Shown here one piece after another: positions 17,407 through 17,435 of a stretch of 64,000 nt of DNA; positions within the stretch are counted from its first letter, which is position 1; every line of letters starts with the position of its first letter. The stretch spans positions 9,719 to 73,718 of the forward strand of contig JAZQNE010000026.1 of the NCBI GenBank assembly GCA_045627185.1, read 5' to 3'. Source of the stretch: Lachnospiraceae bacterium. Lineage in GTDB: Bacteria > Bacillota > Clostridia > Lachnospirales > Lachnospiraceae. The notes beneath the pieces were generated by a model that did not search any database, had not been told where the DNA came from, and was given only the letters and a program-made list of their open reading frames with translations. The position numbers and the translations under genes were made by a program.

Positions 17407-17435
17407 TTGATAATAATAATAATAATAATTGTCAA
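17407..17435 (-). promoter_or_regulatory. candidate promoter of module B with an SSR spacer
   Basis: The minus strand has TTGACA (17435-17430), a 17-nt spacer made of ATT repeats, then TATCAA (17412-17407). This lies about 60 nt upstream of the ATG at 17347. Confidence 0.45.
17411..17428. repeat. trinucleotide tandem repeat (TAA)x6
   Basis: Read directly: taataataataataataa. Confidence 0.95.

Follow-up and report, generated by a model that had tools for sequence, protein, structure and literature searches.

A trinucleotide microsatellite in the probable promoter of a secreted-protein cassette from an uncultured Lachnospiraceae bacterium: a plausible but unproven length-gated switch

The 64,000-nucleotide stretch of Lachnospiraceae bacterium DNA analysed here (assembly GCA_045627185.1, contig JAZQNE010000026.1, positions 9,719 to 73,718; hereafter the window) carries on its minus strand a three-gene cassette, module B, which encodes a secreted protein, a membrane-anchored protein and an ATP-binding cassette (ABC) pump and is preceded by a TTA microsatellite lying directly against a perfect -35 hexamer. 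We tentatively propose, at somewhat less than even confidence, that this tract is a selectively kept microsatellite within a sigma-A-type promoter, where it would work as a length-gated on/off switch of the cassette. On the minus strand, the -35 hexamer TTGACA (17430-17435), which matches the consensus at all six positions and is kept in the orthologous locus L018, is followed without any gap by A(TTA)6 (17411-17429), where the A is position 17429 and the (TTA)6 runs from 17428 to 17411, and then by TCAA (17410-17407); in its context the tract reads ...ttttaccTTGACAattattattattattattatcaactttgcagg.... An earlier note on this DNA, made from the letters alone, had given the same minus-strand order of TTGACA, A(TTA)6 and TCAA, and its coordinates as well as its hexamer arithmetic proved right when the sequence was read again. 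Tandem Repeats Finder places the repeat at 17410-17429 with a period of 3, 6.7 copies and 100% match. Beyond the perfect units an imperfect seventh one is found, TCA (17408-17410), which is TTA in L018 according to a gap-free alignment of the two promoter blocks. A(TTA)6 occupies positions 1-19 of the spacer after TTGACA, which places a perfect short repeat between the -35 and the site where a -10 would be expected.

At a spacing of 17 nucleotides (nt) from the -35 the hexamer is TATCAA (17407-17412), which matches the consensus at 4 of 6 positions and is devoid of the T at position 6, as the earlier note had stated. With at least seven units the same position would be taken by TATTAT (5 of 6 positions, A2 and T6 included) while five units would place CAACTT there. 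In silico, the gain of one unit turns a poor module B promoter into a good one; this step to TTGACA-17-TATTAT had likewise been predicted from the letters, and it is borne out here as well as in the single orthologue found, where the change is from seven to eight units. At the present length, no -10 with A2 and T6 was found 16 to 18 nt past TTGACA, the hexamers being TTATCA, TATCAA and ATCAAC at 16, 17 and 18 nt respectively, and a consensus promoter scan rejects TTGACA-17-TATCAA since the final T is missing.

The mechanism that we propose would proceed as follows. TTGACA would serve as the -35, and the repeat, which starts one base later, would spell TATTAT every 3 nt through its units, this hexamer being found at 17 nt only once the tract reaches that far, namely with seven units here and eight in L018. 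At the present length there would be no usable -10, and the operon would be silent or weakly expressed; slippage that adds one unit would generate TTGACA-17-TATTAT and turn the operon on, and removal of the added unit would turn it off again. Because the tract abuts the -35, added units leave the spacing unchanged, and the repeat would therefore act as a threshold, a promoter being formed from seven units upwards, and not as a spacing dial. Indeed, what added units would change is the hexamer found at 17 nt, which would then consist of repeat units. Under such toggling, the commonest off state would be the threshold minus one unit. Two parts of this mechanism are inferred: a slippage rate high enough to be of use, and a dependence of transcription on the length of the tract.

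The module B tract is not a chance product. The expected number of its 18-mer, with up to two mismatches allowed, is 0.02 per window in dinucleotide-preserving shuffles. Furthermore, trinucleotide tracts of at least six units are found twice in the real genome (2.55 Mb) and not once in six first-order Markov genomes of the same size, and the other 6-unit tract of the genome lies in frame within a coding region.

The strongest new support for a mechanism based on repeats comes from their context across the genome. Throughout the genome, 5 of the 2231 TTGACA sites have a tandem repeat of at least 14 nt within the 60 nt downstream, and all 5 head paralogous cassettes composed of a secreted protein, an anchored protein and an ABC pump. 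Repeats had been noticed earlier at the sister modules A and C, which is correct and can be extended to the whole genome. In module A (window 9791-9827), (TGCTA)-type repeats of about six units abut a perfect TTGACA, and in module A2, which lies outside the window (contig C26:1675-1689), (TGCTA)3 abuts a perfect TTGACA as well. The junctions of the module A repeat spell TATGCT, one of them at 18 nt, while A2 with its three units has none in range. A and A2 thereby repeat the module B design with an unrelated unit, the tract abutting TTGACA and supplying the -10 if it is long enough. The second architecture is that of modules C, C2 and C144, where TTGACA-17-(N)AC(A/G)AT is directly followed by (GTTCT[T/A]T)n ahead of secreted proteins: C2 displays TTGACA-17-CACAAT and then (GTTCTTT)9 (contig C2:186-278), C144 displays TTGACA-17-TACGAT and then (GTTCTAT)15 (contig C144:21095-21204), and module C, a sixth cassette beyond those five, has the heptamer promoter type with 2.4 copies (window 58045-58061). 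The paralogous promoters differ mainly in copy number, with about 6 versus 3 pentamers and 2.4, 9 and 15 heptamers. The repeats seem specific to this species. In the seven other species of the genus, nothing matches the first gene of module A or that of module C. No exact-protein record exists for the former, for which a homologue search returned only itself, and the heptamer pattern gave two matches in 40 relatives, both in unrelated contexts.

Two further observations were made on the heptamer modules. In module C, a T8 run (57888-57895) disrupts the first gene, whose signal peptide (ATG at 57944) is encoded in one frame and whose mature part is encoded in the +1 frame; this reflects either an off state or an error of assembly. 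Two of the secreted proteins of this type carry a papain-like Cys/His motif (weak Peptidase_C70 match, E = 0.02).

The single known orthologue of module B, L018, is a 3.6-kb Logan contig whose adjacent first protein is 65% identical to that of the window (35% divergence). Between the window and L018, 36 of the 38 positions of the block cTTGACA A(TTA)n ... AAyTTTGC agree in an alignment free of gaps, and the spacer upstream of this block is unalignable. When the two loci are compared in blocks of 60 nt, the signal-peptide block (87%) and the promoter block (82%) are the best conserved of the locus, the rest of the operon beyond the signal-peptide block showing from 42 to 78% identity per block. 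L018 reads TTGACA A(TTA)7 ATTTTGC, and its (TTA)7 set against (TTA)6 plus TCA in the window results in an equal total length. At 17 nt L018 has the hexamer TATTAA, with no final T, which an added unit would turn into TATTAT. Each of the two known copies thus lacks precisely one unit for the 11/12 promoter TTGACA-17-TATTAT, and a consensus scan of the gene strand of L018 found no canonical promoter. The promoter with a variable gap, searched as two patterns each in metagenome and genome collections, had no match there.

Elsewhere, the only perfect match to TTGACA A(TTA)4 or longer is in another genus, at a locus of genome G300 (L021, G300:C31:2194-5211, minus strand, ~3694-3711) that reads TTGACA A(TTA)5 TA TATAAT with an ordinary 18-nt spacer. 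This repeat-spacer promoter precedes a 132-amino-acid secreted protein and a multi-pass membrane protein without family assignment. The match may be coincidental, the reversed control pattern having also matched once.

Several findings weigh against a length-gated switch. The length of the tract is identical in the sole orthologue despite the divergence around it, for which a static, length-constrained element is the simpler account; taken alone, the unchanged length favours a static tract, and one comparison cannot separate toggling from stasis. No second strain carrying the module B cassette was found in the public assemblies searched, and the source genome is a metagenome bin (148 contigs, 82.6% complete) in which tract lengths represent a population consensus. 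Furthermore, mutS and mutL are present and the tract has only 6 units (18 bp), so that slippage may be rare, and the interrupted seventh unit TCA would stabilise the tract further. Lastly, the best consensus match of the region, at 10/12 in the consensus scan, is another site, TGGCCA-16-TATAAT, which is considered below.

A static promoter element is the alternative that survives best, and we regard it as possible though rather doubtful. It would consist of a TTGACA and an AT-rich tract that are fixed, with no meaningful slippage, the promoter being weak, activator-dependent or overlapped by a protein-binding site. Such an element fits the near-identical sequence and identical total length in L018 amid strong surrounding divergence, as well as the shortness of the tract and the presence of the mismatch repair genes, and in G300 (TTA)5 is indeed the ordinary 18-nt spacer of a TTGACA...TATAAT promoter. 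However, at 16 to 18 nt both orthologues lack a -10 that ends in the essential T, and a perfect repeat is unexpected in a spacer, whose sequence is normally free to vary. Moreover, the cassette contains no regulator gene, and a static element leaves unexplained why every paralogous cassette has a different promoter repeat. The relatives of the cassette in other genera, which display TTGACA with a normal -10 and no repeats, were counted in favour of the length-gated promoter.

The second alternative concerns which promoter drives the operon. The DinG-like helicase gene upstream of module B ends at 17623 and is followed by its intrinsic terminator (17494-17531, minus strand), which has a 10-bp stem and a T run (RNA fold -25.4 kcal/mol, z = -4.3). 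Because of this strong terminator, the operon needs a promoter of its own within the 147 nt from 17494 to 17347. A perfect TTGACA also opens the paralogous modules A, A2, C, C2 and C144 and two relatives from other genera, L033 (TTGACA-16-TACAAT) and L035 (TTGACA-17-TATAAT). Judging from the sequence comparisons, TTGACA is very probably the real -35 of the module B operon; the earlier note had taken it as such, and the upstream terminator, the conservation in the orthologue and the promoters of paralogues and relatives make it the best candidate. Alternatively, the working promoter could be TGGCCA-16-TATAAT (17363-17390, minus strand), the TTGACA-repeat block then being an upstream AT-rich element or the relic of an older promoter, which we consider unlikely. 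Despite its consensus score, this site is not conserved in L018, where the conserved block is TTGACA with the tract, and a start about 7 nt past TATAAT would be at ~17356, within the Shine-Dalgarno GGGG, giving a leader of 8-10 nt. AT-rich sequence just 5' of ribosome-binding sites is frequently TATAAT-like. In the promoter region an Rfam search had no match, the leader folds no better than shuffled sequences (z = -0.7), and no fitting sigma-54, sigma-H or extracytoplasmic-function-type motif was seen by eye in the conserved block.

A third possibility, to which we give little credence, is that a repressor, of the Fur/PerR type or otherwise AT-binding, uses the tract as an operator overlapping the promoter. 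Compared by eye, TTATTATTATTATCA has 2 mismatches in the 14 specified positions of the 7-1-7 Fur and PerR boxes. However, matches of equal quality number 51 (Fur) and 86 (PerR) in the genome, which attributes the likeness to AT-rich low complexity, and the tract is not a true inverted repeat; the resemblance to Fur, PerR or Zur boxes was thus judged unspecific. A neutral microsatellite with no role is the least probable of all, given a chance expectation of about zero, the conservation of the tract in L018 and the non-random association of repeats with cassette promoters. An invertible promoter was also rejected: the sole flanking pair is a 15-nt, 87% A/T-rich low-complexity match that overlaps the start codon, and the cassette has no recombinase.

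Comparison with known systems places the length-gated promoter of module B as one more candidate of a known kind, plausible but unproven. The analogy drawn earlier with spacer repeats in Haemophilus and Neisseria holds in that the repeat lies in the core promoter, and fails in that the -10 of those promoters is outside the repeat and the spacing changes. In Haemophilus influenzae hifA/hifB, as described in PMC2651432 from van Ham et al. 1993, (TA)9-11 lies between the -35 and the -10. On that description, hif resembles module B in having a perfect short repeat in the core promoter where one unit decides whether -35 and -10 can be used jointly, but its -10 is outside the repeat and its spacing varies, whereas the module B repeat abuts the -35 and would supply the -10. 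Furthermore, the hif variation as described there is proven and belongs to a Gram-negative pathogen, while module B has six 3-nt units in an uncultured Lachnospiraceae and its variation is unproven. A survey of H. influenzae genomes found no evidence of phase variation mediated by trinucleotide repeats of this species (PMC2651432).

In Neisseria meningitidis porA, a poly-G promoter repeat tunes transcription (PMC3639595), and it is closest to the poly-A13 tract of the window (42791-42803); it differs from module B in being a homopolymer that changes spacing and grades expression instead of creating a -10. Closer in unit size is the (GAA)n of Mycoplasma gallisepticum vlhA, a trinucleotide at the promoters of paralogous secreted/surface genes with conserved flanks and a copy number that varies among paralogues, as seen here (PMC6258824). 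However, the GAA tract is ~40 nt upstream of the start, outside the -35/-10 core, and is thought to be activator-dependent at exactly 12 units; vlhA tracts are longer than that of module B, and strain variation is documented for them (PMC6258824). The 7-nt repeats of C, C2 and C144, which sit just downstream of the promoter in the leaders of secreted-protein genes, have their best analogue in the heptamers of H. influenzae hmw1A/hmw2A (PMC2651432, PMC8262952, PMC12721329), although unit sequence and organism differ, and the hmw architecture is unlike that of module B. Among Firmicutes, the (GCAGA)n of Streptococcus gallolyticus pil1 gives repeat-driven stochastic expression of a secreted/surface structure, but acts via a leader peptide and attenuation and not through promoter geometry (PMC3894217). 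For Clostridioides difficile, also of the Clostridia, the examples of phase variation cited in a recent review are invertible promoters and DNA inversions (PMC11868660). Relative to all these systems module B is distinct in that the repeat itself would form the -10 and in its uncultured Lachnospiraceae host.

Module B in its entirety is a 4404-bp accessory cassette (13223-17626, minus strand) made of terminator, promoter, three genes and terminator, as an empty site is found in L048, L025 and L027. The insertion point is between the helicase gene and the pair of a 76-amino-acid gene and hisS. In L048, a Logan contig that stems from a different sample, identity to the window amounts to 99.5% over 12148-13222 and 95.2% over 17627-18080, with the two flanks joined directly, and the drop in identity across this junction suggests exchange by recombination. 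In the more distant relatives L025 and L027 the helicase, the 76-amino-acid gene and hisS follow each other with nothing between. No mobility gene and no target duplication were found for the 4404-bp insert. The neighbouring helicase is 57-60% identical to proteins of Anaerocolumna and other Lachnospiraceae.

The first gene (16502-17347, minus strand) encodes a 281-amino-acid secreted protein with a signal peptide, which is predicted to be all-beta and belongs to a very rare family. Indeed, only 2 sequences were found in 5.8e9 proteins and 6 representatives in 1.84e9, and across 400 genera of the family Lachnospiraceae the search for this gene gave one borderline match only (E = 9.5e-4). Exact-protein look-ups returned no record for the first gene product, the anchored protein or the pump. 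The first protein contains a Ser/Gly-rich stretch with alternating hydrophobic residues, and the profile of its six-member family shows a weak match (E = 0.02) to Panton-Valentine leucocidin F (1pvl_A) in the stem region, including the YAP motif. The first protein matched no Pfam family and no bacteriocin family, and the structure model is poor, with a predicted local distance difference test (pLDDT) score of 44. On the profile match, the protein may be a remote beta-barrel pore-former, a weak lead that does not amount to a classification.

The second gene (15913-16491, minus strand) encodes a protein of ~190 amino acids anchored by one N-terminal transmembrane helix. Its family is present in 7 of 300 other genera of the Lachnospiraceae, where the genes for the secreted protein, the anchored protein and the ABC pump invariably follow each other in this order; no tandem repeats were found at the loci of these seven genera, the repeats being hence no family-wide trait. 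The third gene (13365-15851, minus strand) encodes an 828-amino-acid fusion of an ABC ATPase and an FtsX-type permease (Pfam ABC_tran and FtsX). The best NCBIfam match of the pump is TIGR03608, with 175 bits under a cut-off of 254.85, so that its ATPase appears most like those of lactococcin-972-type bacteriocin exporters while falling below their cut-off. A lactococcin-972-type bacteriocin cassette was rejected, the ATPase being below the TIGR03608 cut-off and no peptide of the lactococcin-972 family having been matched. Most likely, the cassette encodes a secreted effector and a set of partners that would serve protection or export. Between the anchored-protein and pump genes a 19-bp hairpin with 95% complementarity is found (15866-15909), which may be an internal attenuator or a processing site.

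Beyond the TTGACA-headed cassettes, repeats are associated across the genome with the promoters of secreted- and membrane-protein genes. For units of 1, 3, 5 and 7 nt, the longest non-coding repeats of the genome lie ahead of genes whose products carry a signal peptide or a membrane anchor, and six of them precede cassettes of secreted protein, anchored protein and ABC pump. The three longest homopolymers (13-14 nt) are in promoter regions, also upstream of signal-peptide or membrane-anchored protein genes. The first is the poly-A13 mentioned above, which fills the spacer of TTGCAA-16-TATGAT with TG before a 572-amino-acid secreted protein; this protein belongs to a cassette pair around rho, the paralogous copy of which (36650-36680) has only A6, and an exact-protein look-up for it had nothing on record. 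The other two are A14 tracts located just upstream of an extended -10 (contig C25:7456-7469 and C25:25041-25054), preceding a 363-amino-acid signal-peptide protein and a 261-amino-acid membrane-anchored protein. Finally, the longest dinucleotide tract of the genome, (AT)6 (contig C10:3730-3741), lies in TTGACC-15-TATAAT before a 225-amino-acid membrane protein; it is one unit short of the 17-nt spacing and follows exactly the hif plan as described in PMC2651432.

The remaining top-scoring non-coding repeats of short period and high identity include the DnaA boxes of the origin and a repeat before greA. The former, at contig C13:11500-11610, form a cluster of TTATCCACA DnaA boxes at the likely replication origin, and the latter is a (GCAATGAAT)3 repeat in the greA leader (contig C50:915-942).

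Should the module B tract be static, the finding comes down to an AT-rich promoter spacer of an ordinary, if unusual, kind. If it slips, a small fraction of cells would express a costly secreted, possibly pore-forming protein together with its pump, which would represent bet-hedging or division of labour in an uncultured anaerobe. On a wider and more speculative view, which we hold with low confidence, some ten promoters of this species would be under repeat control, through units of 1, 2, 3, 5 and 7 nt, and would gate rare, strain-variable secreted- or membrane-protein genes, mostly in cassettes with an anchored partner and an ABC pump, and in two promoter classes the repeat would itself encode the -10. 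The paralogous cassettes each have a different promoter repeat, with homopolymer or dinucleotide tracts at the promoters of other secreted- and membrane-protein genes, and together they would constitute a repeat-based stochastic expression system in a non-pathogenic anaerobe of the Clostridia, in which tract length acts as a threshold gate.
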